Assembly: GCF_004010195.1 (NCBI RefSeq)
Contig: NC_057718.1
Location: 90,687,353-90,751,352, forward strand
Source: Chiloscyllium plagiosum
Taxonomy: Eukaryota
Length of the DNA stretch: 64,000 bases
Reading direction: 5' to 3'
The stretch's first letter is position 1. The number at the start of each line of letters is the position of its first letter. This document shows, one piece after another, positions 10,595 to 57,569 of the stretch. Below the pieces are notes generated by a model. It did no database searches. It saw only the letters and a list, made by a program, of their open reading frames with translations, and was not told the origin of the DNA. The position numbers and the translations under genes were made by a program.

Positions 10595-11517
10595 TGCCCA
10601 GAGCCTCTAAGTCTGGTAGATGGCAAGGTTAGGTACTGCCTGATTAAATAGTCCTCCCCAGTTCACCGCCAACGAGAGCAGGAGCTTCATCCCTGCTGTG
10701 GGCCTTCACTTACCAATGGAATTCCTGCTAGAATATGCTGCCCTGCTTTCCATAGGATGCCAGGTCCAGTTGAATGGGCATCAGCAGCCAAATGGTTCTT
10801 ACTGGCTCAGTCTGGATGGTTAGTATTGTTAACCTCTTCAATTAGAGTTGGCATCATTTTAGCTTCTAAAGTACTCATAGAATCCCTACAGTGTGGAAAC
10901 AGGCCATTTGGCCCAACAAGTCCACACCGACACTCCAAAGAGTAACCCACCCAGGCCCATTCCCCTATCACTTGACATTTACGCCTGCCTAATGCACTTA
11001 ACTTGCACATCCCTGAACAATATGGGCAATTGAGCACAGCCAATTCACCTGATCTGCACATCTTTGGATTGTGGGAGGAAACCCACGCAGACATGGAGAG
11101 AATGTGCAAACTCCACACAGACAGTTGCCCGAGGTTGGAATCAAACCTGGGACCCTGGTGCTGGGAGGCAGCAGTGCTAACCACTGAGCCATCATGCCTG
11201 TTTCTGCATTGCAGGGATTCTATGAGTACATTGGGAACTGAAGTGATGACAGCCCTATTGGAAGAGGTTGTCAATGACAAACATCCATCTGCAGCAGTAA
11301 GAACAGCCACTTGGCTGCTGATGCCCATTCACCTGGACCTGGCACCTTCTGGAAAGCAGGGTAGCGTGTTCGAGCAGGAATTCCATTGATAAATGAAGGC
11401 CACAGTAGGGAATGATCTCTTGCTCTCATTGATGGTGAACTTGGGGAGTGGGGGAAGGGGCTGTTTAATCAGGCAGTACCTGACCCTGCCATCTCCACCA
11501 GAATTAGGCTCTGGGCA
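10595..11517. repeat. Inverted duplication (arms about 10595-10904 and 11196-11517) around an HE1 SINE
   Basis: aggtactgcctgattaaa vs tttaatcaggcagtacct; aatggaattcctgct vs agcaggaattccatt; gaatgggcatcagcagccaa vs ttggctgctgatgcccattc. Confidence 0.92.
10875..11197 (-). mobile_element. HE1-type SINE
   Basis: Full tail-to-head reverse complement of HE1. Confidence 0.9.
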
Positions 11518-23329: not shown

Positions 23330-23740
23330 AGTGAGCAGAATAGATCTTCACCAACAACAGCTTATGCAGCATGCTTATTGCAAGAAAATGTGCCAGGCAC
23401 TTCAAAAGCACAATAAAACAAAAAATGACCATCTAATGACATCATCAGGTGACCAAAAGGTTGGTCAAAGAGGCAGTTTTTTTAATAAGCAAAGAAAGAA
23501 GGCAAGCTTTGGGGAGCCTAAAGGAGGAAATTCAGGCCTTCAAGCCCAGAGACCTGAAGGGCAAGGTTACACCCAGTGGAGCAACGTCAGTCCCATTGAA
23601 TATCAGGGAGGTTTGTGAGGCCAGAACTGAACGTAGATGTCTGAATGGTTGTGGGACTGGAAGGAATTGCAGATTTTGGAGAGCTGAGGCCATGGAGAGA
23701 TTTGAAAGCAAGAGTAAAGATCTTAAAGTCAAAATGTTGT
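23330..23740 (-). mobile_element. L2-like LINE 3' fragment
   Basis: HFDFKIFTLAFKSLHGLSSP on the minus strand, an L2 C-terminal motif. Confidence 0.7.
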
Positions 23741-23744
23741 TTTG

Positions 23745-23965
23745 GCCAGTGGTCAGGATCGGGAATTCTCTGCCTGAGAGTGTGGTGGAAGGAAGATTCA
23801 ATTGAGGCCTCCAAAGGGGACTTTGAATAACTAAATGAAGAGAGAGGATTTGGAGGCCATTTCAGCAAAAAGGTGGCAGAGTGGGGACGTGTGACCTTGC
23901 TCACTTAGAGGGCTAGTACAGACACAACTGGCCAAGTGACCTCCTGTGTTGCAATGATTCTGGTT
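23745..23965 (+). mobile_element. Degraded CR1 3' fragment
   Basis: VVRIGNSLPESVVEG. Confidence 0.6.
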
Positions 23966-24392: not shown

Positions 24393-25209
24393 CTAATCCT
24401 TCACTGGTTGATGTTTGACACAAGAGAGACCAGCGCATTGGTATAATATATAACAGTCTCCATCCAATATTAGTAGGTTTTTAATGGACACTGCAGAATA
24501 GTGATTGGGTGTGAGGCACTAAGCTGGGATGCTTTATCTCTGTTTAGTTTTGGAGTTGAGCTCAGCATATGGAACCTTCCTGGTTTGGATGTGTCATTAC
24601 CACAGCACATAGGCCTTATCAACTCTGTCAGCACTCCTCTGTCAGGGAGATATGATCTTAAAAAACATGGAGAAGAGTAAGTGATAATTGCAGCCAGCGG
24701 GAGTGTGAAGTGGAGGAAAACAAAATGGTTTTAATAAAACCGATGGTATCTTCTTCGGCCTGCACAGGCAGTGTTTAGAACCTGCCAATGAGCTGGAATA
24801 CCCATCATTTTTTTTCTCTCTTCTTATGTCGTTTGTGCCTTCAGAGTGCTGGTAATTCAAGGAAATAAAATTAAGGAGGCATTGCTTTTGTAATCAAATC
24901 TTCCATAACTCTTCATTGTGTTTATAAATCACTCCGAGTTCATTATCCATTGGGTAATGCAGCAGTGATTTGTACTCTCACTCGTCATGACCAGCTCAAA
25001 AGATTTATTGCTTCTATCTCTCTTTTAATAACGAAAAAGCTAAGACTCAGAAAAAAGGCACGCAATCAAAAATAAACATGAGTGGAGGAGAGGATACAGT
25101 TGCCAACTCTGCTTGGATGTTTGCCTGCACATTTCAAAATATCCCACCCTCAAACGCTGTCCCCAGCCCCTAAACACCATTGATCACCCACAATTGCCAC
25201 CCTTGCCAG

Positions 25210-25392
25210 TCATAGATTCTGTACGGGGGGTGGAAGCAGGCTATTCGGCCCATCAGGTCCCCACTGACCTTTTGAAGAGCATCCCATGACCCCTACCCTA
25301 TCACTGTAACCCTGTTTCCCCCTGGCTAATCCACCAGCCTGCACTTCACTGGAAACTATGGGCAATTTAGCGTGGCCAATCCACCTCACTTT
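25210..25392 (-). mobile_element. HE1 3' half
   Basis: Tail plus ctatgggcaatttagcgtggccaatccacct. Confidence 0.75.
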
Positions 25393-25552
25393 GTACAATG
25401 ATTCTTAACTCTCAGCTTTTTAAAGCTAGCTCCCGTGATTTCCCGAACAAATGGTCAAAGGAACTGAGAGGAAAAAGTGCTACATTGATGAATGCCCTGA
25501 GGGCTTTTCTACTGAGTGCGACCATGGAGATTACCTTCTGTTTTGGAGCATT

Positions 25553-26060
25553 ATCATAGAATCCCTACAGTGTGGAAACAGGCCCTTCGGCCCAACAAGT
25601 CCACACCAACCCTCCGAACAGCAACCCACCCAGACCCACTCCTCCACCCTATTATCTTATATTGACCCCTGAATAATGCACCTAACCTACACATCCCTGA
25701 AAACTACAGGCAATTTAGCCTGGCCAATCCACCTGACCTGCACACCTTTGGATTGCGGGAGGAAACTGGAGCACCCAGAGGAAACCCACGCAGACACGGG
25801 GAGAATGTGCAAACTCCACAGTCGCCCGAGGCTGGAATCGAACCCAGGTCCCTTTGCTCCTGTCTCAGCTCATCTGCTCTTGAAGCTCTCACACATGCCT
25901 TCATTAGCTCCAGTCTTCACCATTCCAATATCTTCCTGGTCTGCAGCACTCCACCCTCTGTAAAACTGAGATTATCCAAAACCTTGCTGTCCATCTCATC
26001 TTGTGGATTCCTGGCACGGTGAGGCAGCAGTGCTAACCACTGAGCTACTGTGCCAACCCA
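25553..26060 (-). mobile_element. HE1-type SINE carrying an internal 143-bp L2-derived insert (25854-25996)
   Basis: HE1 sequence breaks at ggtccct and resumes at ggattcctggcacggtgaggcagc. Confidence 0.88.
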
Positions 26061-26094
26061 GGGGTAACCCAAAAGGTTGAGCAACCTTTTCAAA

Positions 26095-26275
26095 CTATTT
26101 CATCCACCAGATGTGGGCATTGCCCAAATCTTATTACCTTTCAGTGACAACTGAGTGCCATCCTCAGCCAGTGCAGAGGGCAGTTAGGAGTCAACCACAT
26201 TGCCCAGGGTCTGGAGTCAGGTGTTGGCCAGACCAGGGAAGGATGGCACTTTCCCTTCCCTAAAGGGCACTGGGC
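26095..26275 (-). mobile_element. SINE family B 3' part
   Basis: gagggcagttaggagtcaaccacattg, gccagaccagggaaggatggca. Confidence 0.75.
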
Positions 26276-26294
26276 AAAGATGATTCAAAGGCTA

Positions 26295-27240
26295 AAGTCA
26301 AGACTGCAGATGCTGGTGATTAGAGTCGAAAGTGTTGTGCTGGAAAAGCACAGCAGGTCAGGCAGCATCCGAGGAACAGGAGAGTCGACGTTTCAGCCAA
26401 AGGCCCTTCATCAAGAATGAGGCTTGTGAGCCAAGAGAGTGGAGAGATAAAGGGAGGAGGGTGGGGCTGGAGGGAAGGGAGCTGAGAGTGCAATAAGTGG
26501 ATGGAGGTGGGGGTAATGGTGATAGGTCGGAAAGGAGGTTGGAGTGGATAGGTAGGAAGGAAGATGGACAGGTAGGACAGTTCATGAGGGCAGTGCCGAG
26601 TTGGAAGTTTGGAACTGGGATAAGGTGGGAGGAGGGGAAATGAGGAAACTGGTGAAGTCGACATTGATGCCATGGGGTTGGAGGGTCCCAAGGGGGAGGA
26701 TGAGGCATTTTTCCTCCAGGCATTGGGTGGTTAGGGAGTGGCGATGTAGGAGGCCCAGAACCTGCAAGTCCTTGGTGGAGTGGGAGGGGCAGTTGAAGTG
26801 TTTGGCCATGGGGCTGTGGGGTTGGTTGATGTGGGTGTCCCAATGATGTTCTCTGAAGCGCTCTGCGAGTAGGTGTCCTGTCTCCCCAGTGTAGAGGAGA
26901 CCACATCGGGAGCAATGGATACAGTAAATGACATGTGTGGAAGTGCAGGTAAAGCTCTGATGGATGTGGAAGGCTCCTTTGGGGCCTTGGATGGAGGTGA
27001 GGGGGGGAGTGCGGGCGCAGGTTTTGCAATTACTGCGGTGGCAGGGGAAGGTGCCAGGACGGCAGGGTGGGTTGGTGGGGAGCCTGGACCTGACAAGGGA
27101 GTCGCGGAGGGATTGGTCTTCACAGAAAGCAGATAGAGTTGAGGAGGGAAATATATCACTGCTGGTGGGGTCTGTTTGTAGGTAGCGGAAATAGCGGAGG
27201 ATGATACAATGTATGCGGAGGTTGGTGGGGTGGAAGTTGA
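26295..27240 (-). mobile_element. Penelope-like retroelement, 5'-truncated: GIY-YIG endonuclease C-terminus plus 3' UTR
   Basis: Hand translation of the minus frame ending at 26582: GTFPCHRSNCKTC..FTCTSTHVIYCIHCSRCGLLYTGETGHLLAERFREH..MAKHFN..LEEKCLI..GTLQPHGINVDF; hammerhead-like motif at 26383-26420. Confidence 0.9.
26383..26420 (-). ncRNA. Minimal type I hammerhead ribozyme-like motif (C3>U variant)
   Basis: attc-TTGATGA-agggc-cttt-ggct-GAAA-cGTC-gact, with palindromic ACGT stem III and a GUC cleavage triplet. Confidence 0.55.
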
Positions 27241-27749
27241 GGTCCGAAGCTCAGTGGTGTCCCAAGCATATGTAGGGAGTTCCTGAACCGGGGGGAATAG
27301 GACAGTATCGAGGTATGTGGAAATGAGTTCAGTTCAAGATATGTGGAGATGAGAGGGGCATTTATTTTTATTTGCCATGAAATAATAAAACCCATACCAG
27401 GTTAAACTGGCTTGTTCAGTTTTACTTCTGATGGAACAGCATCTGCCCCTCATATGGACTCTGGTTCACAATGAACAAGACTTCTTTAAAGTCAATCTGT
27501 ACCTATTGTCATTACTATCCCCCTTTATATCTCTTTAACTGCCTACTTTGCCCCTTCACTCCTTTCCCATTTCCTTTCCACATAAACAGCAACATCACCA
27601 CCTTCCGGGAGATAGGAACAGTCTCAGTTCCTGACAGAGTCATTTCCAGGTGGTGTCTGCACTCCCAGTGTGGATGGGAATGGCATGAAACAGGTCTGTG
27701 AGAGATAGCAGCTGTGGCTTGGGAAAGCAGAGTGGGGGGGGTCTGCATT

Positions 27750-28070
27750 TAGGGCAGCACAGTGGTTAGCACTGCTGCCTCACAGTGCCAGGGACCCGGG
27801 TTTGATTCCAGCCTCGGGCGACTGTCTGTGTGGAGTTTGCACATTCGCCCTGTGTCTGCGTGGGTTTCCTCCGGGTGCTCCAGTTCCCTCCCACAGTCCA
27901 AAAATGTGCAGGTCAGGTGGATTGACTGTGCTAAATTGCTAAATGGGTTAGTCATTGGAAATATGAGGTTATAGGTCAGGAGGGTGGGTGTGGGTGGGAT
28001 GCTGTTTGGAGGGTTGGTGTGGACTCAATGGGTCGAATGGCCTGCTTGCACACTGAAAGGTTTCTGTAAC
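27750..28070 (+). mobile_element. HE1-type SINE
   Basis: HE1 head, body and tail. Confidence 0.9.
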
Positions 28071-28634
28071 AGTGCATAACCATTGTGGACCTTGACCTAT
28101 ATTCAAGCTTTTATCACGATAGCCTGTCTTCAACCAGTCCTTGACCCATCCTACTCCAATCCCCACCATATGAATCCTCCAAGGCTGCTGCCTTCCCACG
28201 CCAAGTGGAACTAGAACAGACATGAATTTTCTCAGCCTGTTGACAACGGGTTGAGAAAGGGTCTTGAATGTGGGCAGAGGGCGGAGTATATTGGTGGGAG
28301 AGGAAGGAAAATGGCAAGACGAGGACATCACGAGGGGAGTCCGATGAAGTTTGCCGTCTGGAGAAGGGTGGCTGTTCATTGATTCACAAAGTGGTCACTC
28401 GAGAGCAATGGGCATTTTGATCACCCAGTGAGGGGAGGGGGAGGACCGCCCAGTGAAAACTGGCACCTCCCGGCAGTTTCCAGGCACCCCGCCAACCCCA
28501 GAAACAATGACCACGTTCCCAGCAACAGCGTCACTACCGCTCATCAATTCCTTTGTTCCCAAGCATGTCAGCAATAGCGTTCAAAATTGTCTCAGCTCAA
28601 TTTTCTAATGGTTCGATTTTATTTCCTCTCCCAG

Positions 28635-28700
28635 GTTTGCTCACTGCGGCACCTTGGAGATTTGATTTTTGTTTGAAAAAACGTAGTTACTTTTTGTTTG
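28635..28700 (+). other. Candidate 66-bp cassette exon (unverified)
   Basis: ttctaat branch-like motif near 28603, attttatttcctctcccag| acceptor, TTG|gtaagc donor; open in phase 1/1 (LLTAAPWRFDFCLKKRSYFLF). Confidence 0.3.
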
Positions 28701-29254
28701 GTAAGCCTATCCGGATTTGCCGGCACCACAGGTGAACTGGAATGTTGCGATTCATGATGGAGCCACTGTTTTAATAAACATTAGACGTGAAACAGTCATC
28801 GTATAAACTATTATGAGCGACAATAAATATAATTGCATTTTATTTTATCGTTTCCAAGCTGTTTAATTTGAGTGGTTTATGACGCTGAGAGAGAGAGAAT
28901 CACTGCAGCAATTCTCAGTCTCTTTGTTCCATTCTTCCCTCAGAAACTGTCTTCAGTTGAAATGTTTGTCTCCTGGACTCAGCCCGCTCACACCCCATTG
29001 CCATTTGATTTCCATCATCATGACTTCCTATCCTCAGTAAATATTAACAAAAGGACTCATGCTATAAATAATGTATGCGCTCAATTGGATCTACAGCACT
29101 TTTGGTCAGTCTTGAGATCACCCAAGGAACAACGCACAGTTAGGTTCTCTCTATTTATTTTTCCTTTCTCTTTAGAGGCGCAGTGAAACCAAAAAGGTGC
29201 AGGGAATGAGGGAGAGATGAATTGAAAATGGTTATGAAGGGGGATGTGAAGCGT

Positions 29255-29985
29255 TCCATCACTTCTGAAGTACTGCGAGCAGTTTTGGTCCCCTTACTTT
29301 AGCAAAGACGGTAGCCATGATGTGGGGGGAGCCGGTGTTGGACGGGCATGGACAAAGTTAAACATCACACAACACCAGGTTATAGTCCAACAGGTGTATT
29401 TGGAGGCACTAGCTTTCGGAGCGCCGTTCCTTCTTCAGGTAGCTATAACCTGGTGTTGTTTGATTTTTAACTGTAGCAAAGATATTATTTCATTGGAGGC
29501 AGTTTGGAAGAGGTTCACTAGGATGTCCCCCTGCCCGTGTATGGAGGGATTGTCCTATGAACTAAAAGCCGACCAACGTTGGGAATCTACTCAGTGTAGT
29601 TTCCGAGGAATGAATGGTGATTTCATTGTAACATACAGGTTTCTTAAGGGGCTTGACAAGGTAAATGCTGAGAAGGTTCTTCCCCTCCATGGGAGAGTCT
29701 GGGAACAGAGGGCACAGTCTCAGAATAAAGTGGCACCAATTTAAGATTGTGATAAGGAGGATTTTTTTCTCTCAGTGGTTGAGTGTTTGGAATTCCTTAC
29801 CACAGAGAGATTTGGTGGCAGAGTCCTTGGGTATATTTAAGATTCTTGATGAAGAAGGGGAGTCCAGGATTATGGGGAAAGGGCACGAAAACACACAAGA
29901 AGAATGTCATCTTGTTGAATGGTGGAGTAGACTCAAGGGGCTGAATAGCCTCCTCCTGTTCCTGTTTCTTGTGGTCTTGTATTCT
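29255..29985 (+). mobile_element. CR1 LINE 3' fragment interrupted by a PLE-derived insertion
   Basis: YCEQFWSPYFSKD before and IISLEAVWKRFTRM after the insertion; VWNSLPQR. Confidence 0.85.
29309..29473. mobile_element. Short fold-back PLE-derived insertion with intact hammerhead core nucleotides
   Basis: TSD tagcaaaga at 29300-29308 and 29474-29482; acaacaccaggttatag pairs with ctataacctggtgttgt; minus strand reads ctgaaga-a-ggaac-ggc-gctcc-gaaa at 29438-29414. Confidence 0.75.
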
Positions 29986-30462
29986 TGTAGCCCCTGCAGT
30001 GCCCACCCCTCTCTAAATGCCTTGAGGGCATTGGTTCTTCTGCTATTTTCAGAGTTCTGTTTCTGCCTCGCATGGTTTGTGGTGGAATGCAGCCTTCATC
30101 CCCGATGAATGAGGCACCTTGTGGAGTTGCCGCTCCACCTCCCAGGCACTGGCACCCAGCGACACGCCAACCGGCCTTCCACCCATTCCACGTTGGAAAT
30201 ACATTCTCTGTGCGACGGCTCAAAAGGCCAATAAATAAGTCTTAACCATCAAAAACAAAATGGAGGAGGGAGAAGCTGGATAAAGATTGGCAGTGGGGGA
30301 GAGTTCAGTTCTTTGGGACATGTTTAATTGTACTTACCATTTTAAATGTGTTCCTGGGTATTGAAAGGTTATCAATAATCAATATCTACATCCCTTTCAA
30401 TGTTCAGACAAGGATACAGGTTACCATGTGCCAAGAAAGTGCCAAGGGCTAGCTGGCAGACA

Positions 30463-30760
30463 TAGGGTGGCACGGTGGCTCAGTGGTTAGCACTGCTGCC
30501 TCACTGCGCTAGAGACCTGGGTTCAATTCCCACCTCAGGCAACTGTCTGTGTGGAGTTTGCCCATTCTCCCCATGTCTGCGTGGGTTTCCTCACCTAGTC
30601 CAAAGATGTGCAGGTTAGGTGAATTGGCCATGCTAAATTGCCCGTAGTGTTAGGTGAAGGGGTAAATATAGGTGAATGGATCTGGGTGGGTTGCTCTTCG
30701 AAGGGTCGGTGTGGAGTTGTTGGGCTGAAGGGCCTGTTTCCACACTGTAAGAAATCTAAA
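30463..30760 (+). mobile_element. HE1-type SINE
   Basis: Full HE1 motifs. Confidence 0.9.
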
Positions 30761-30895
30761 AATTTCAGCCAGGAGCAGTCGACTCAAATCAGTTTTCTTT
30801 TGGGGCTCTGTATAGGTCCTCCAACAATTTAGCCGGGGGGAGTGTATTCTTAATGGTGTGAGTTTGTGGGGCTGCAGCAGAGATGTATCCACAAA

Positions 30896-31380
30896 GGGCA
30901 GCACGGTGGCTCAATGGTTAGCACTGCTGCCTCACAGTGCCAGGGACCCAGGTTCAATTCCCACCTCAGACAACTGTCTGTCTGGAGTTTGCACATTCTC
31001 CCCGTGTCTGCGTGGGTTTCGTCTGGGTGGGCAGCACGGTGGCTCAGTGGTTAGCACTGCTGCCTCACAGTGCCAGGGACCCAGGTTCAATTCCCACCTC
31101 AGGCAACTGTCTGTCTGGAGTTTGCACATTCTCCCCGTGTCTGCGTGGGTTTAGTCTGGGTGCTCTGGTTTCCTCCCACAGTCCAAAGATATGCAGGTTA
31201 GGGTGAATCGACCATGCTAAATTGCCCATAGTGTTCAGGGATGTGTAGGTAAGGTGTATTAGTCAGGGGTAAAGGAAGAGTAATAGGTTAGGGAATGGGT
31301 CTAAGTGGGATACTCTTTGGAGGGTTGGCGTGGACTTGTTGGGCTGAAGGGCATGTTTCCATACTGTAGGGATTCCACTC
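30896..31380 (+). mobile_element. HE1-type SINE with a 133-bp tandem duplication of its 5' head
   Basis: 30896-31028 vs 31029-31161, 3 mismatches by hand. Confidence 0.92.
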
Positions 31381-31797
31381 TAAGTCACCAATTGATGGAT
31401 CTCACCTGATTAAGGCCTGCTCCCTCTGAAATGCAGCGTTTCATGGGCTTGTGCAACAGAATGTGAGCTGGTTATGTATATGGCTGGCCCCTAATTTTCC
31501 TGACTCTGTTTTGTGCTTTCATGATGGCAGAGAGTACGTTCCATGGTGTGTCAGTTCAGTGGCTCTTCCTTCCTCGATCAGTGACCGGTGGAGAAGGGGT
31601 TTCTGAATGGGCAGGGAGAGGGAAAGGGGCAGAGTGGCGGACAGAGACTCCATCAATCCTAAACCACATGAGAGCTGGAGCTTTCAACCTTGCGTTACCC
31701 TTCGGGCCCTCTCCTTCGAAATCAGTGAATTGGTGCTGTTTGCTTTTCCACAGGGTTTAAGTGAAATGAATTCACCGTTTTTTTCATTCTTTTGCAG

Positions 31798-31874
31798 CTC
31801 TTCGTGAATTCCCCAATGACATCTTTACAAACGAGGAAAGAAGACATGGGGCTATCGCTCTCCATCTGCTCTGT
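31798..31874 (+). CDS. SLC24A3: Internal coding exon (77 bp, phase 1 to phase 0) of K+-dependent Na+/Ca2+ exchanger NCKX3
   Basis: Polypyrimidine tract and acceptor (ttttttcattcttttgcag|CT) and strong donor (TGT|gtaagt). Translates as (A)LREFPNDIFTNEERRHGAIALHLLC, matching the recalled NCKX3 segment ALHEFPNDIFTNEDRRQGAVVLHVLC just before the first TM block; closer to SLC24A3 than to SLC24A4 (EFPTDLFSNKERQHGAVLLHILG). Not in the ORF track. Confidence 0.92.
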
Positions 31875-31917
31875 GTAAGTCATAGCTTCCTTTTGTCACC
31901 ATCATTCTAATGTTAAA

Positions 31918-32031
31918 GTTTTGGATGGAATCGTCGACTTCTCCACCTCCTGGTGCTGTCTGGCTTGCTGTGTTCTTCCAGCCTCCTGCCTGTCTACCTT
32001 GGATTCCAGCATCTGCAGTCTCTTTGTCTCT
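31918..32031 (+). mobile_element. Short PLE-derived insertion 44 bp downstream of the SLC24A3 exon end
   Basis: 14-bp TSD attcta(a/g)tgttaaa at 31904-31917 and 32032-32045; same family as the right arm at 5235-5332. Confidence 0.75.
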
Positions 32032-33699
32032 ATTCTAGTGTTAAAAGCTGGTGTTGCCCAATGCAAGTATATAGGAGGTGTAAAACAGGTTAGATCCCTT
32101 TGATTGCAAAGGATTATGTTCGCAACTCAGTGACACTTCAACAGGGGGCTAAAAACAAAAGGTTTTGTTGCTGGTGTTTGATCTGGATGGAATCAAAGTT
32201 GACCAAAATGAATGAACCTGCTTTCCATGACTTTCTGAACCAATGATTTTGGATGAGTAACTAAGTTCTTACACTGAAAGTTTCCTCCAAATCTGAAGCT
32301 TTTCCTTGCCAGCAGTTATTCACTTGCAACCTTTGCAAATGTTCAGTTGACAATTTACTGCAATTCAGAGATTTTGGCTCTGAATGTCTGATCCCGCACT
32401 TGGGTGTACAGAGTCGAAAATTCCTGCCTCTGCCATCTAGACTCCAGTGAGCATTCCCCAGACATATGGAGTTCAGTTCCAGGCCAGAGTTGGAATTGGT
32501 CGCCTCGGTGTAGACATCGGAGGCAACCACATGGGGGCAGTAGAGCCGAGACTTGGTCACAGTTGACAGGAAATCTATGAAATAAAAAGGAACAGCCATC
32601 ATCCCTCCTACCCCACACAATCCCCATACCACTTCCTCCTACCACCTCACCACCCTTTAAGGCCCTTTATAGCCTCTTACTTCCAAGTCATACCAACTCA
32701 TGAACCCTCACCCATCACTATTTACCCTTATACCTACTGTGCCAACTCACACATGAACAAACTTTAGAACCTTTGCTGAGATGAAATAATGCAATGTTCT
32801 AAGTGTCCGTTGAGAATTAAATTTTTTGTCTAAAAACATTCATTGATTTAAGAACTCCTTCACTACATTTCACATCCTTCGACTGCTTGATCCATATAAA
32901 AACAAGCATTTGTATTCACCGATCCACTTCAGAGACTTTATAAGTCTTAGAGCTGTCAGTCAAACTGTAAACTGACAGGCAGCCCACTGCGCTAACATTA
33001 GGTTGTGGAATCAGTCATGCTGTATGGATCTTTTTAATGGTAGCCCTCGAATTTATGTGAACAGACTTAACTGGCAAGAAGAGACTTTTTTTAAAACACT
33101 GTAAACCATTTTCTCAAAAGTTTAAAGGCCAGGAGTTTTACATGATTGACACTTTGATTATTCCCATTCAGTGACACTTCCCTTGATGACTTGACATTTT
33201 CTGTGACAGCTTGACAGCTCCAACGAGTTTAAGACTTCGTTTCTCACACATTTGTGTCTACTTTTAACAATCCCAAATGACACCTGAGCTCTCCAAAAGG
33301 GCACTTGACCGCCTTTAAAGGTGTTGCCAGATCTATCCAAAAGGATGTCACACCATGCCAAAAGGGTATTCTACCTTCACAAATAAATCTGTCCGTTGTA
33401 GATCTTCTCTTGGGCAGAGGCAGCATCCTGGGTCCTGTCAGCAACAGTGGAGGCTGCTTCAAAGTGTTTCCTCCTCGGTGCTGGCATCTCAAAACAGTTT
33501 GGTGGCTGCAGAGTCACTTAGGAAATCGAGGAGATGCGGATGGAGCAAGAATGACATTTGTCCTAACTTTATATGATTTATTTCTTTTTATAATTTACAC
33601 AATTAAAATGGCTTCAGCATATGGTAACTTATATATATGTATATATTACTGTATTTACATAGATATGTGGAACAATAAATTATTATTTCTATATCTGGG

Positions 33700-34520
33700 A
33701 GGGTTGTGTGGTTGGAGGTGGCAGATACTGGATGAGACAAGGACATAGAGAGACTTGAATCTGAAGCCTGAGGATTGGAAAGTCAAGCTGATGCAAGGTA
33801 GCAAGTATCGGGGGTGAAAGGGGAATAGGATTTGGTGCGGGTTAACAGATGGGCAGCAGAGTTTTGAATCACCTCGGTTTTACAGAGGGTGGAATGTTGC
33901 AGACCAGGAAGATATTTGAATGGGGAGGACAGGAGCTAACTGAGGCATGCGTGAGGGCTTCAGCAGCAGATGAGCTGATACAGTGGCAAAGGGACCCGGG
34001 TTCGATTCCAGCCTCAGACGACTGTCTGTCTGGAGTTTGCACATTATCCCCTTGTCTACATGAATTTCCTCCGGTTACTCCACTTTCCTCCCACAGTCTA
34101 AAGATGTGCGGGTCAGGTGGATTGGCCATGCTAAATTGCTAATCGCTTATAGTGTTCAGGGATGTGTAGATTCGGTGTATACAGGATAAATATACACCTA
34201 ATATAGGATAATAGGGTAGGGGAATGGGTCTGGGTGGGATACTGTTTGGAGGGTCGGTGTGGACTTGTTGGGCCGAAGGGTCTGTTTCCGCACTGTAAGG
34301 GTCCTATGATTTTATGAAAGTCGGAGGATGTTGTGGAGTTGGAAATAGGCAGTCGGATTGGTAGCGTAAATATGAGGACAGATGCTCACCTTGGGAGCAA
34401 ATGTGGCACTAAGATTGTGAACGGACTGGTTCAATCACAGACTGGGACAAGGGAGAGGGATGGAGTCAGTTGCTTCAGACTGGAGTTTAGAGCAGAGACT
34501 GAAAACTGTGCCTTGGCATC
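33700..34520 (-). mobile_element. Old L2 LINE fragment split by an HE1 SINE
   Basis: Minus-strand translation VHNLSATF..TAYFQLHNILRL, then CHCISSSAAEALTHA, continuous across the SINE; matches the L2 motif AYFHLRNIARLRP.LS..AAETLIHAF. Confidence 0.75.
33990..34315 (+). mobile_element. 5'-truncated HE1-type SINE
   Basis: Begins at agggacccgggttcgattcc (B-box); A-box head absent. Confidence 0.88.
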
Positions 34521-34774
34521 GTACAACCGTGTCTGCTATTTGCAGAATCCTCTTGAAATCTCATCTCATCATTGTTGCTTCGGAGGCCTTTTCAAGAACG
34601 ATTTAAGAGAGAGTCTGGCTGATCAGACCCTTTGAAAGATTACTGCTGAGAGTTGCAGTGAAAGGTAAAATCCTTTCGCTTTAGCTTTCCTGTTGTCTTG
34701 TGAGAAACAGAGAGTTCAGATCATTGGGCGATCAGAGGGACTGGGTCTGAACTTGAGGAAAATTGGATCAATTA

Positions 34775-35280
34775 GAGCATCATACAGTACAGAAACAGAC
34801 CTTTCAGTCCAACTCATCCATGCCAATCAGACATCCCAATCTGACTTAGTCCCATTTGTCAGTACCTAGCCCATATCCCTCTAAACCCTTCCTATTCATG
34901 TACCCATCCAGATGCCTTTTAAATGTTGTAACTGTACCAGCCTCCACCACTTCCTCTGGCAGTTCATCCCATACACGCACCACCCTCTACATGAAAAAGT
35001 TGCCCTTTGGGTCCTTTTTAAATCTTTCCCCTCTCACCTTAAACCTATGCCCTCTAGTTTTAGACTCCCCTCCCAACCGTAGAAAAAAGACCTTGTCTAT
35101 TTATCCTATCCACGCCCCTCATGATTTTATAAACCTCTATAAGGTCACCCCTCAGCCTCCGATCCTGCAGGGGAAACAGCCCCAGCCTATTCAGCCTCTC
35201 CCTATAGCTCAACCCCTCCAACCCCTAGCAACACTTGTAAATCTTTTCAGCACCCTTTCAAGTTTCACAACATCCTCCAT
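34775..35280 (-). mobile_element. HER1/CR1 3' fragment
   Basis: Reverse complement of the 18560-19065 region. Confidence 0.9.
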
Positions 35281-54015: not shown

Positions 54016-54024
54016 ACCAAGATC

Positions 54025-56585
54025 ACCCTTCTCCACCACTGACCAGGACCAGCCTTCCCCGCCACTGACCAGGACCAGCGTTCCCCACCACTGTCCAGGA
54101 CCAGCCTTCTCCACCACTGACCAAGACCAGCCTTCCCCACCACTGACCAGGACCAGCCTTCACCACCACTGACCAGAACCAGCCTTCACCATCAATGACC
54201 AGAACCAGCCTTCACCACCACTGACCAAGACCAGCCATTACCACCAGTGACCAGGACCAGCCTTCCCCACCACTGACCAGGACCAGCCTTCACCACCACT
54301 GACCAGGACCAGCGTTCCCCACCACTGACCAGGACCAGCATTCCCCACCACTGACCAGGACCAGCGTTCACCACCACTGACCAGGACCAGCATTCTCCAC
54401 CACTGACCAGGACCAGCCTTCACCACCACTGACCAGGACCAGCATTCTCCACCACTGACCAAGACCAGCCTTCTCCACCACTGACCAGGACCAGCCTTCA
54501 CCACCACTGACCAGGATCAGAGTTCCCCACAACTGACCAGGACCAGCCTTCTCCACCACTGACCAGGACCAGCCTTCCCCACAACTGACCAGGACCAGCG
54601 TTCACTACCACTGACCAAGACCAGCCTTCCCCACCACTGACCAGGACCAGCCTTCACCACCACTGACCAGGACCAGCCTTCCCCACCACTGACCAGGACC
54701 AGCCTTCTCCACCACTGACCAGAACCAGACTTCACCACCAATGACCAGGACCAGCCTTCCCCACCACTGACCAGGACCAGCCTTCACCACCACTGACCAG
54801 GACCAGCATTCTCCACCACTGACCAGGACCAGCCTTCACCACCACTGACCAGGACCAGCATTCTCCACCACTGACCAAGAGCAGCCTTCTCCACCACTGA
54901 CCAGGACCAGCCTTCACCACCACTGACCAGGACCAGCATTCCCCACCACTGACCAGGACCAGCGTTCTCCACCACTGACCAGGACAAGTCTTCTCCACCA
55001 CTGACCAGGACCAGCCTTCACCACCACTGACCAGGACCAGCGTTCCCCACCACTGACCAAGACCAGCCATCACCACCACTGACCAGGACCAGCCTTCACC
55101 ACCACTGACCAAAACCAGCCTTCTCCACCACTGACCAAGACCAGCCATCACCACCACTGACCAGGACCAACCTTCTCCACCACTGACCAGGACCAGCCTT
55201 CACCACCACTGACCAGGACCAGCATTCTCCACCACTGACCAGGACCAGCCTTCACCACCACTGACCAAGACCAGCCTTCTCCACCACTGATCAAGACGAG
55301 CCATCACCACCACTGACCAGGACCAGCCTTCTCTACCACTGACCAGGACCAGCCTTCTCCACCACTGACCAGGACCAGCCTTCACCACCACTGACCAAGT
55401 CCAGCCTTCACCACCACTGACCAGGACCAGCCTTCTCCTCCACTGACCAGGACCAGCCTTCACCACCACTGACCAAGTCCAGCCTTCACCACCACTGACC
55501 AAGACCAGCATTCTCCACCACTGACCAGGACCAGTCTTCACCACCACTGACCAGGACCAGCATTCTCCACCACTGACCAGGACCAGCCTTCACCACCACT
55601 GACCAGGACCAGCCTTCTCCACCACTGACCAGGACCAGCCTTCACCACCACTGACCAGGACCAGCATTCCCCACCACTGACCAAGACCAGCCATCACCAC
55701 CACTGACCAGGACCAGCCTTCACCACCACTGACCAGAACCAGCCTTCTCCACCACTGACCAAGACCAGCCTTCACCACCACTGACCAGGACCAACCTTCT
55801 CCACCACTGACCAGGACCAGTCTTCACCACCACTGACTAGGACCAGCATTCTCCACCACTGACCAGGACCAGCCTTCACCACCACTGACCAAGACAGCCT
55901 TCTCCACCACTGACCAAGACCAGCCATCACCACCACTGACCAGGACCAGCCTTCTCTACCACTGACCAGGACCAGCATTCTCCACCACTGACCAGGACCA
56001 GCCTTCACCACCACTGACCAAGACCAGCATTCCCTACCACTGACCAAGACCAGCATTCCCCACCACTGACCAAGACCAGCCTTCCCCACCACTGACCAGG
56101 ACCAGCAGTCCCCACCACTGACCAGGACCAGCATTCTCCACCACTGCCCAAGACCAGCCTTCACCACCACTGACCAAGAACAGCCTTCTCACCACTGCCC
56201 AAGACCAGCATTCACGTCCACTGACCAACCTTCTCACCACTGCCCAAGACCAGCATTCACGTCCACTGACCAAGAACAGCCTTCTCACCACTGACCAGGA
56301 CCAGCATTCCCCACCACTGAATAAGACCAGCCTTCACCACCACTGACTAAGACCGGCGTTCCCCACCACTGACCAGGACCAGCCTCTCCACTTCTGACCA
56401 AGACCAGTGTTCTCCACCACTGACCAGAATCAGCCTTCTCCACCACTGACCAAGACAAGCATACTCCACCACTGACCAAGACCAGCGTTCCCCTCCACTG
56501 ACCAAGACCAGCGTTCCCCTCCACTGACCAAGACCAGGCTTTCCACCACTGACCAGGACTAGCCTTCCCCACCACTGACTAGGAC
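54025..56585. repeat. Minisatellite, 26-bp unit ccaccactgaccaggaccagcctt(ct/ca/cc), about 98 copies
   Basis: Period of 26 read directly (54033 to 54059); the minus-strand ORFs repeat every 26 aa (3 units). Confidence 0.97.
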
Positions 56586-57569
56586 CTCTGGTGTCATTTA
56601 GTGCACTCATCCAAACTTCTGAAAGAGTTTGTTGTTCCAAGATGAGAGTAAATTGGTTTCTGTTGGCTGAGAACCATTGATCGGGGTGGGGGTATCCACT
56701 AATAAATGGGAATAAACCTCTTCAAAAGAATGGTGAAGGGCACATTTGGAAATCGGGAGAACAGCTGGATTCAAAGGATATTCTGTTAAGTGAGTGCTTT
56801 CATCTGCCACCACTGGACAGTGGTCAGTCCAGCACATCTGCATGTCTCCTCAATGTAAGTTTAAACACAAGGCTGTTGATTCAATGAGGACTGCCAACTC
56901 CTGTTGATATGAGGGAGGTAATATTTTAGCCCAGTTTCAAGTGGTCAGCTATTGACTTGCATTTGGAGGCATCCCTGGCTGAATTGTGACATATCAGTGG
57001 GATAGCTCTGAACAACTGTAATATATTCATTAATACATGCAGGCTGTCAACAGAGTGATGTAGGGATGACCTTTACTTCAACTTGTTTCATTTGTGTGTT
57101 TCTTAGCACATTTTTAACAGAGCTGTCAACCTTGAGGCAATGTCAGCTGGGAGATGGATGATTGTAGAGAGTGACGCAGTTTGTAAACCTATCTGGATAT
57201 GTGGGGCTGCGTTTATTTTTCACAGTGATGTACATCCAAATAGGTTACATTTTTCATTCACCATCCTCCGCAGCTTGCTCCTTGTGCTGGAATAGAGCTG
57301 CACCAGTTTTGGCAGCTTGTCAGTAGCTCTCCCGAGTGTATATCTCCATTCCCTCAACTAAATAATGTGGGAAAGCCGTCTATAGCAGCAGCTGGGATGT
57401 TGTGGTGGAGTCTGAGGTTAGTCCACCATTCCTACAAAGTGACGGTGATGGGTAAACAGTAAAACTTCTATTCTGAATAATTCTGTCTTTCCCTCAGTAC
57501 AGGGCTAAAGGCAATTACTCCAAAACACACCATAGCTTTGGCTCAGCACACACATTCCAGCTCAAAGGG

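Follow-up and report, generated by a model that had tools for sequence, protein, structure and literature searches.

A 143-bp LINE fragment inside a shark SINE, apparently copied from the flank of an inverted SINE 7.85 kb away

A 64,000-nucleotide stretch of the genome of the shark Chiloscyllium plagiosum (contig NC_057718.1, positions 90,687,353 to 90,751,352; hereafter the window), made up of repeat-rich animal DNA, holds a short interspersed nuclear element (SINE), here called HE1-A, whose body and head are parted by 143 bp of a decayed long interspersed nuclear element (LINE). The same LINE sequence stands, in inverted orientation, beside a second and 5'-truncated SINE, HE1-B. Comparison of the two sites indicates that the piece inside HE1-A was copied from the flank of HE1-B, and we consider it fairly probable that it arose in the germ line by two-switch DNA copying between young, near-identical inverted SINEs 7.85 kb apart. 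As a single event this matters little, being a dead SINE that holds a dead LINE fragment. Its value lies in its clarity: donor, direction, entry, exit and age are all readable, and a SINE truncated at its 5' end shows precisely where homology stops. Window positions of the features are collected in Table 1.

Donor site and direction of copying

The piece at 25854-25996 matches the reverse complement of 33847-33989 without a gap at 120 of 143 positions, which confirms the hand count of an earlier note on this DNA, and registers shifted by 1-5 bases give only 32-44 identities. The inverted alignment continues unbroken from the piece into the SINE body (25553-25996 against 34310-33847; 467 columns, 80.5%), with 7,850 bases between the arms, and the junction with the SINE falls on the identical base in both copies, as had also been noted earlier. 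Within the window there is no third copy of the piece by blastn at word size 7 (next-best E 0.29), nhmmer matches it only twice (E 3e-48 and 6e-47; next E 0.71), and a 24-letter pattern allowing at most three mismatches occurs twice, compared with no occurrence in 100 shuffles. All other SINE copies in the window lack the piece (blastn, nhmmer), leaving HE1-A as the single chimera there. An assembly artefact was rejected because the two copies of the piece differ at 23 of 143 bases. A metagenome scan with the piece, itself without sign of shark DNA, gave one match, to an unrelated AT-rich contig. Words of 25000-34900 were partly present in 18 of 24 sequencing runs, at least half of them in four, with no bearing on the junction; two related organisms hold 0.14-0.33 of these words, suggesting that they are only a few per cent diverged and probably too close to retain the pre-insertion state.

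The direction of copying is recorded at 34 kb. Read against the reverse transcriptase protein P0008, the LINE part lying on the 34.3-kb side of HE1-B reaches residue 120, and the frame resumes in register on the 33.99-kb side, where it is aligned from residue 124 and residues 120-123 are read off the sequence. Because the LINE frame is in register across the SINE and AAAG stands on both sides, the LINE/SINE junction arose at 34 kb by insertion of the 5'-truncated HE1-B, and this site is the donor; the earlier description of it as the native site holds. The LINE is continuous on both flanks of the donor SINE, the donor is intact, and copy number was gained, with two copies now present in the window.

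The 25.9-kb piece, as far as its sequence can tell, descends from the flank of HE1-B itself and thus from one dead LINE copy, because a 4-nt gap in the LINE frame, found by frameshift-aware alignment, is common to both pieces. The gap was compared without a nucleotide consensus of the LINE family and could be a subfamily trait; descent as argued from the junction holds independently of it. The earlier note had also asked whether the two pieces are closer to each other than to the L2 consensus; they share the frameshift and 35 of 46 residues, compared with about half the residues when the neighbouring donor part is matched to another shark's LINE copy. An independent retrotransposon insertion into HE1-A was set aside, as the piece is an internal fragment of open reading frame 2 (ORF2) that ends at the donor SINE junction and carries the donor's frameshift.

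Two details of the donor deserve mention in their own right. The LINE target at 33980-33991, just upstream of HE1-B, looks like the SINE head that HE1-B lacks (the likeness covers ACAGTG and two further bases, at an offset of 2); this may account for the place at which HE1-B was truncated and may lengthen the effective homology by about 10 bases. Within HE1-B, the sequence normally found at 34174-34198 has given way to an 8-bp inverted repeat with arms at 34174-34181 and 34191-34198, which looks like a tiny local template switch, and some 30 bases ahead of this there is a 7-base insertion; HE1-A has neither feature.

The SINE and the LINE are provisionally called HE1 and L2, respectively, as in the earlier note. 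The SINE is of tRNA type with A and B boxes, whose motifs lie 44 nt apart in an intact copy; Rfam gave no match. The LINE piece is a C-terminal ORF2 fragment of a reverse transcriptase without long terminal repeats (non-LTR), aligning to P0008, which itself matches RVT_1 at E 5.9e-5 with 23.3 bits, below the curated cut-off of 29.6; RVT_1 occurs in 10-25% of members among the Atlas neighbours of P0008. It also aligns to a fragment within the shark protein P0005. This protein is named disulfide-isomerase A6-like and contains a LINE ORF2 fragment at residues 278-356, probably through a gene-prediction error, and that fragment matches the LINE part at 34317..34500 (tblastn E 1.6e-16, 48%). Four other protein matches were dropped as noise (27-45% identity over 4-10 stretches), a further protein search gave no matches, and another recovered nothing beyond its own query. 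At 23683-23751, a weak match (tblastn E 0.15) marks another short stretch of this type of LINE, from farther 3' within ORF2. HE1/HER1 elements are listed in sharks and rays, and HE1 is described as a tRNA-derived V-SINE (PMC3747384).

The return junction in the recipient SINE

Beyond the piece, HE1-A resumes with a head that matches reference positions 5-54, the body beginning at position 46. The near-duplicate of the break site reported in the earlier note is present: bases 25845-25853 recur at 26004-26012, after seven filler bases at 25997-26003. HE1-A therefore resumes 8-9 bases before the truncation point of the donor. A break at a random place in the 301 bases of shared body would yield so short a duplication in only about 3% of cases (8/301), and a longer duplication would have been equally visible. 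For this reason the end of homology probably set the return point; a randomly placed break fails to explain a return within 8-9 bases of the truncation point.

The filler and the short duplication can be read in three ways, at 3, 4 and 9 edits. A second switch to 34562-34581 needs three edits, with null frequencies of 8/1500, 2/282, 4/282 and 35/1500 (0.5-2.3%) for a site that was chosen post hoc; if the filler came from there, the duplication would shrink to about 3 bases and the event would comprise three switches. Slippage of the last five bases of the piece as the filler source needs four. Return through the candidate microhomology at 33838-33843 fits in register but was not adopted, since its product needs nine edits compared with 3-4 for the others; when 16 SINE bases were compared with 390 nt of flank at the donor, this was the only 6-mer in common (P about 0.01). 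Neither a SINE tail nor the far flank of the donor was inserted (blastn, nhmmer).

The A and B boxes of HE1-A are now 203 nt apart, compared with 44 nt in the intact copy, and the piece carries two runs of four T on the SINE strand that are also present in the donor. The insertion probably silenced HE1-A as a template for RNA polymerase III (Pol III). The scar is neutral, without sign of function.

Table 1 Features of the recipient and donor sites, in window positions
Feature	Position	Strand	Remarks
Recipient SINE HE1-A, body and 3' tail; left arm	25553..25853	-	Positions 46-346 of full window copy, 82.8%
Copied 143-bp piece of decayed LINE ORF2, antisense to SINE	25854..25996	+	120/143 to 33847-33989; shared frameshift
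7-base filler at return junction; opens with repeat of the last five bases of the piece	25997..26003	+	
Decayed duplicate of SINE bases 25845-25853; return point	26004..26012	-	6/8 last bases match other copies
HE1-A head with A box; exact 5' end approximate	26013..26059	-	A-B box 203 nt
LINE, 3' part, decayed; donor tract is 33847-33989	33776..33989	-	Frameshift-aware alignment, P0008 residues 124-192
Candidate microhomology, 6-base SINE match, 3 bases past end of copied tract	33838..33843	-	Lost from product
Left copy of 4-bp target-site duplication AAAG; common junction	33988..33991	+	
Donor SINE HE1-B, 5'-truncated; carries two short private insertions that HE1-A lacks	33990..34316	+	
Right AAAG (34317-34320) and 5' part of the same LINE; far end approximate	34317..34500	-	P0008 residues 83-120
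Candidate second template for filler (unproven)	34562..34581	+	Only window site within 3 edits of 25992-26010

Mechanism, competing explanations and further features

The two copies of the piece have diverged as much as the SINEs that carry them. The piece differs at 23 of 143 bases and the SINE bodies at 38 of 282 when the rearranged patch of HE1-B is excluded (Fisher p 0.47), or at 49 of 301 when it is included (Fisher p 1.0), while HE1-A differs by 14-18% from its nine nearest other copies in the window. Since piece and body divergence are equal, the copying appears to be about as old as the SINEs and to date from a time when both were young and most alike.

We favour a mechanism of four steps: (i) A LINE that was already dead received HE1-B in 5'-truncated form, as the flanks of this SINE record. 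(ii) A 3' end in the body of HE1-A, from a break, a nick or a stalled fork, would have paired with HE1-B and been extended. (iii) Synthesis passed the truncation point of HE1-B and continued 143-150 bases into the LINE flank, as can be read in the product. (iv) The strand would then have returned to HE1-A where the shared homology stops; re-annealing along the SINE body may have held its unpaired tail there, or the cut may have lain at that boundary. Joining would leave the 7 filler bases and the 8-9-base duplication, giving a product that reads, in order, a tiny duplication, 7.85 kb unchanged, and then the source of the inverted duplication. The entry junction lies within about 300 bp of inverted homology, and the exit junction carries filler and a short duplication. 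We prefer this two-switch account because such a homologous entry and such an exit match the pattern of junction 1 and junction 2 described in PMC4352052, and because the copy dates from the time when both SINEs were most alike.

Several observations weigh against two-switch copying. Equal age fits formation during the insertion of HE1-A itself equally well, and pairing at entry and return at exit (steps ii and iv) rest on inference. Around HE1-A, target duplication is limited to chance 5-mers, leaving the head and body unsupported as one insertion, and the candidate microhomology is unpreserved in the product. In a tree of 15 SINE copies from the window (two short copies were left out), HE1-A and HE1-B are not sisters. 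HE1-A is the nearest neighbour of HE1-B among 14 copies (0.163 compared with at least 0.195), but HE1-A is close to every copy. Neither the tree nor pair-exclusive states reveal a conversion tract in the SINE body, a comparison of low power as the copy is SINE-aged, and conversion of the whole body is not supported. The earlier note had proposed ectopic gene conversion or templated insertion; of its reading, entry by SINE homology and copying past the truncated end are supported, whereas conversion of the SINE body lacks support. On its question of whether the adjacent HE1 segments share substitutions, HE1-A and HE1-B have in common two pair-exclusive states, a number matched or exceeded by three other pairs of 45, and the two private insertions of HE1-B are absent from HE1-A.

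Retrotransposition offers an account in which HE1-A was born with the piece, its complementary DNA (cDNA), growing from tail to head, having switched to inverted HE1-B DNA or to a transcript of it, overshot into the flank, and gone back to the SINE RNA where homology ended so as to complete the head. Consistent with such an origin, the copied piece matches the SINE copies in age, HE1-A and HE1-B fall within the same 10-copy clade of the 15-copy tree (95/94), and another inverted copy of flank in the window (10595-11517, 40/303 diverged) begins at the 5' end of a SINE. However, two reverse-transcriptase switches are needed, the second back into the middle of the template, whereas chimeric U6/L1 retrocopies are said to involve a single jump. 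Age does not discriminate between repair and retrotransposition, because young, near-identical copies equally favour DNA recombination; we regard birth with the piece as unlikely, if a serious contender. Of the repair reading in the earlier note, the native 34-kb site and the descent from that copy therefore stand, whereas its choice of a DNA break over retrotransposition lacks support, since the copy is SINE-aged. A different DNA-based route, which we hold to be rather doubtful, is an event triggered at the homology boundary, in which two inverted SINEs, still young, form a fold-back or displacement loop (D-loop) with each other, a structure-specific nuclease nicks the recipient a few bases within the duplex boundary, and the nick is extended on the flank of the partner and rejoined. 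A nick at the boundary fits cutting by ERCC1-XPF near stem-loop junctions, for which nick distances range over 2-8 bases. On stem-loops, the nick that ERCC1-XPF makes in this strand lies two bases away from the junction (PMC3488251). If true, the event would be a natural cut-and-extend reaction and, with a second SINE-anchored copy in the same 64 kb, such events could commonly give rise to short inverted duplications in shark genomes and allow them to be dated.

Alternatively, the template could have been a host transcript running through HE1-B, either by way of cDNA that was primed at the HE1-B tail, extended into the upstream flank and recombined with a pre-existing HE1-A, or as RNA that directly templated the repair of HE1-A. 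Transcript-templated break repair has been described in human cells (PMC12065846), and templated insertions have been discussed with RNA sources (PMC5110952), but transcription through this site is unsupported: a Pfam scan covering 149 of the 260 open frames outside repeats found no host exon, only transposon matches and one weak transporter match (E 0.006). With no leftover second SINE body beside HE1-A, and with the two SINE bodies not being sisters, we consider a transcript template improbable. Far less credible is a chimeric SINE subfamily bearing the LINE piece, with the two sites close by chance or HE1-A as the family source. The junction was created at HE1-B, so any such family would derive from HE1-B, and the probability of a daughter within 10 kb of it is about 0.006 for 1000 copies, assuming a 3.6-Gb genome. 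HE1-A would also be a poor Pol III source, judging from its two T runs and its widened box spacing, and the other SINE copies in the window are without the piece.

Other features of the window are given here as observations. The second SINE-anchored inverted copy, within 10595-11517, adjoins the head of a SINE at 10875-11197 and consists of the inverted last 30 bases of that SINE and about 290 bp of its 3' flank; both arms have the same tail/flank junction and differ at 40 of 303 bases, and the switch lies at a 3-base GCC match. At 30896-31162, a SINE head of 133 bp is duplicated in tandem; the duplication is young (97% identical). At 26585-27250, a minus-strand open frame of 222 codons has a weak GIY-YIG match (E 0.003) and probably belongs to a Penelope-type element, a family name that is inferred. 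A satellite at 54016-56586 comprises about 99 copies of 26-bp units, is strongly strand-skewed and has long minus-strand open frames.

Comparison with known systems

A literature search, with most subscription papers outside its reach, turned up no example of this event type from sharks or from HE1. One-sided invasion, or conversion coupled to end joining, was reportedly described by Belmaaza and Chartrand in 1994 and by Richardson and Jasin in 2000. There, as here, an end invades a homologous repeat and synthesis passes the end of homology into the flank, with closure by end joining; the duplication in those events equals an arbitrary distance from the break to the end of homology, whereas here it is 8-9 of about 300 bases. 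The U6/L1 chimeric retrocopies, said to arise by template jumps of the LINE reverse transcriptase, likewise present a SINE-like insertion that holds a second sequence, joined without a long gap. In contrast to these, the foreign part here is internal and was taken from adjacent genomic flank, and the head and body are of one family.

Class 2 templated sequence insertion polymorphisms (PMC5110952) resemble the present case in being short genomic patches without poly(A), but they derive from distant sites and insert seemingly at random, whereas the patch here was primed by about 300 bp of homology 8 kb away. Templated junction inserts (PMC5120786) and the microhomology-mediated break-induced replication (MMBIR) model (PMC4888836) also provide background for such events, repeat-mediated two-switch duplications being classed as of FoSTeS/MMBIR type.

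The nearest relatives are Alu template-switch rearrangements in humans, which include insertional duplications, duplication-normal-duplication (DUP-NML-DUP) and duplication-triplication/inverted-duplication (DUP-TRP/INV-DUP) structures (PMC13041450, PMC4352052), and one Alu-primed insertional duplication lies 24 kb from its source (PMC13041450). In both settings the first switch occurs by homology in an inverted repeat pair, inverted flank is copied, and a second switch leads back to the original template, in the Alu cases with microhomology or filler; at human inverted repeats this is described as a two-switch pattern with a homology-driven first junction and a second junction formed by microhomology or end joining (PMC4352052). 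The Alu rearrangements are larger, the smallest triplication being 254 bp (PMC4352052) compared with 143 bp here, and they are patient alleles, whereas the event here is fixed, ancient and in a shark SINE. Moreover, copying here extended into the spacer and came back no more than 9 bases from the end of homology, so that almost nothing else was duplicated. The event type is thus already known from human Alu repeats, and we lean towards regarding this shark case as a miniature of Alu-mediated template switching.

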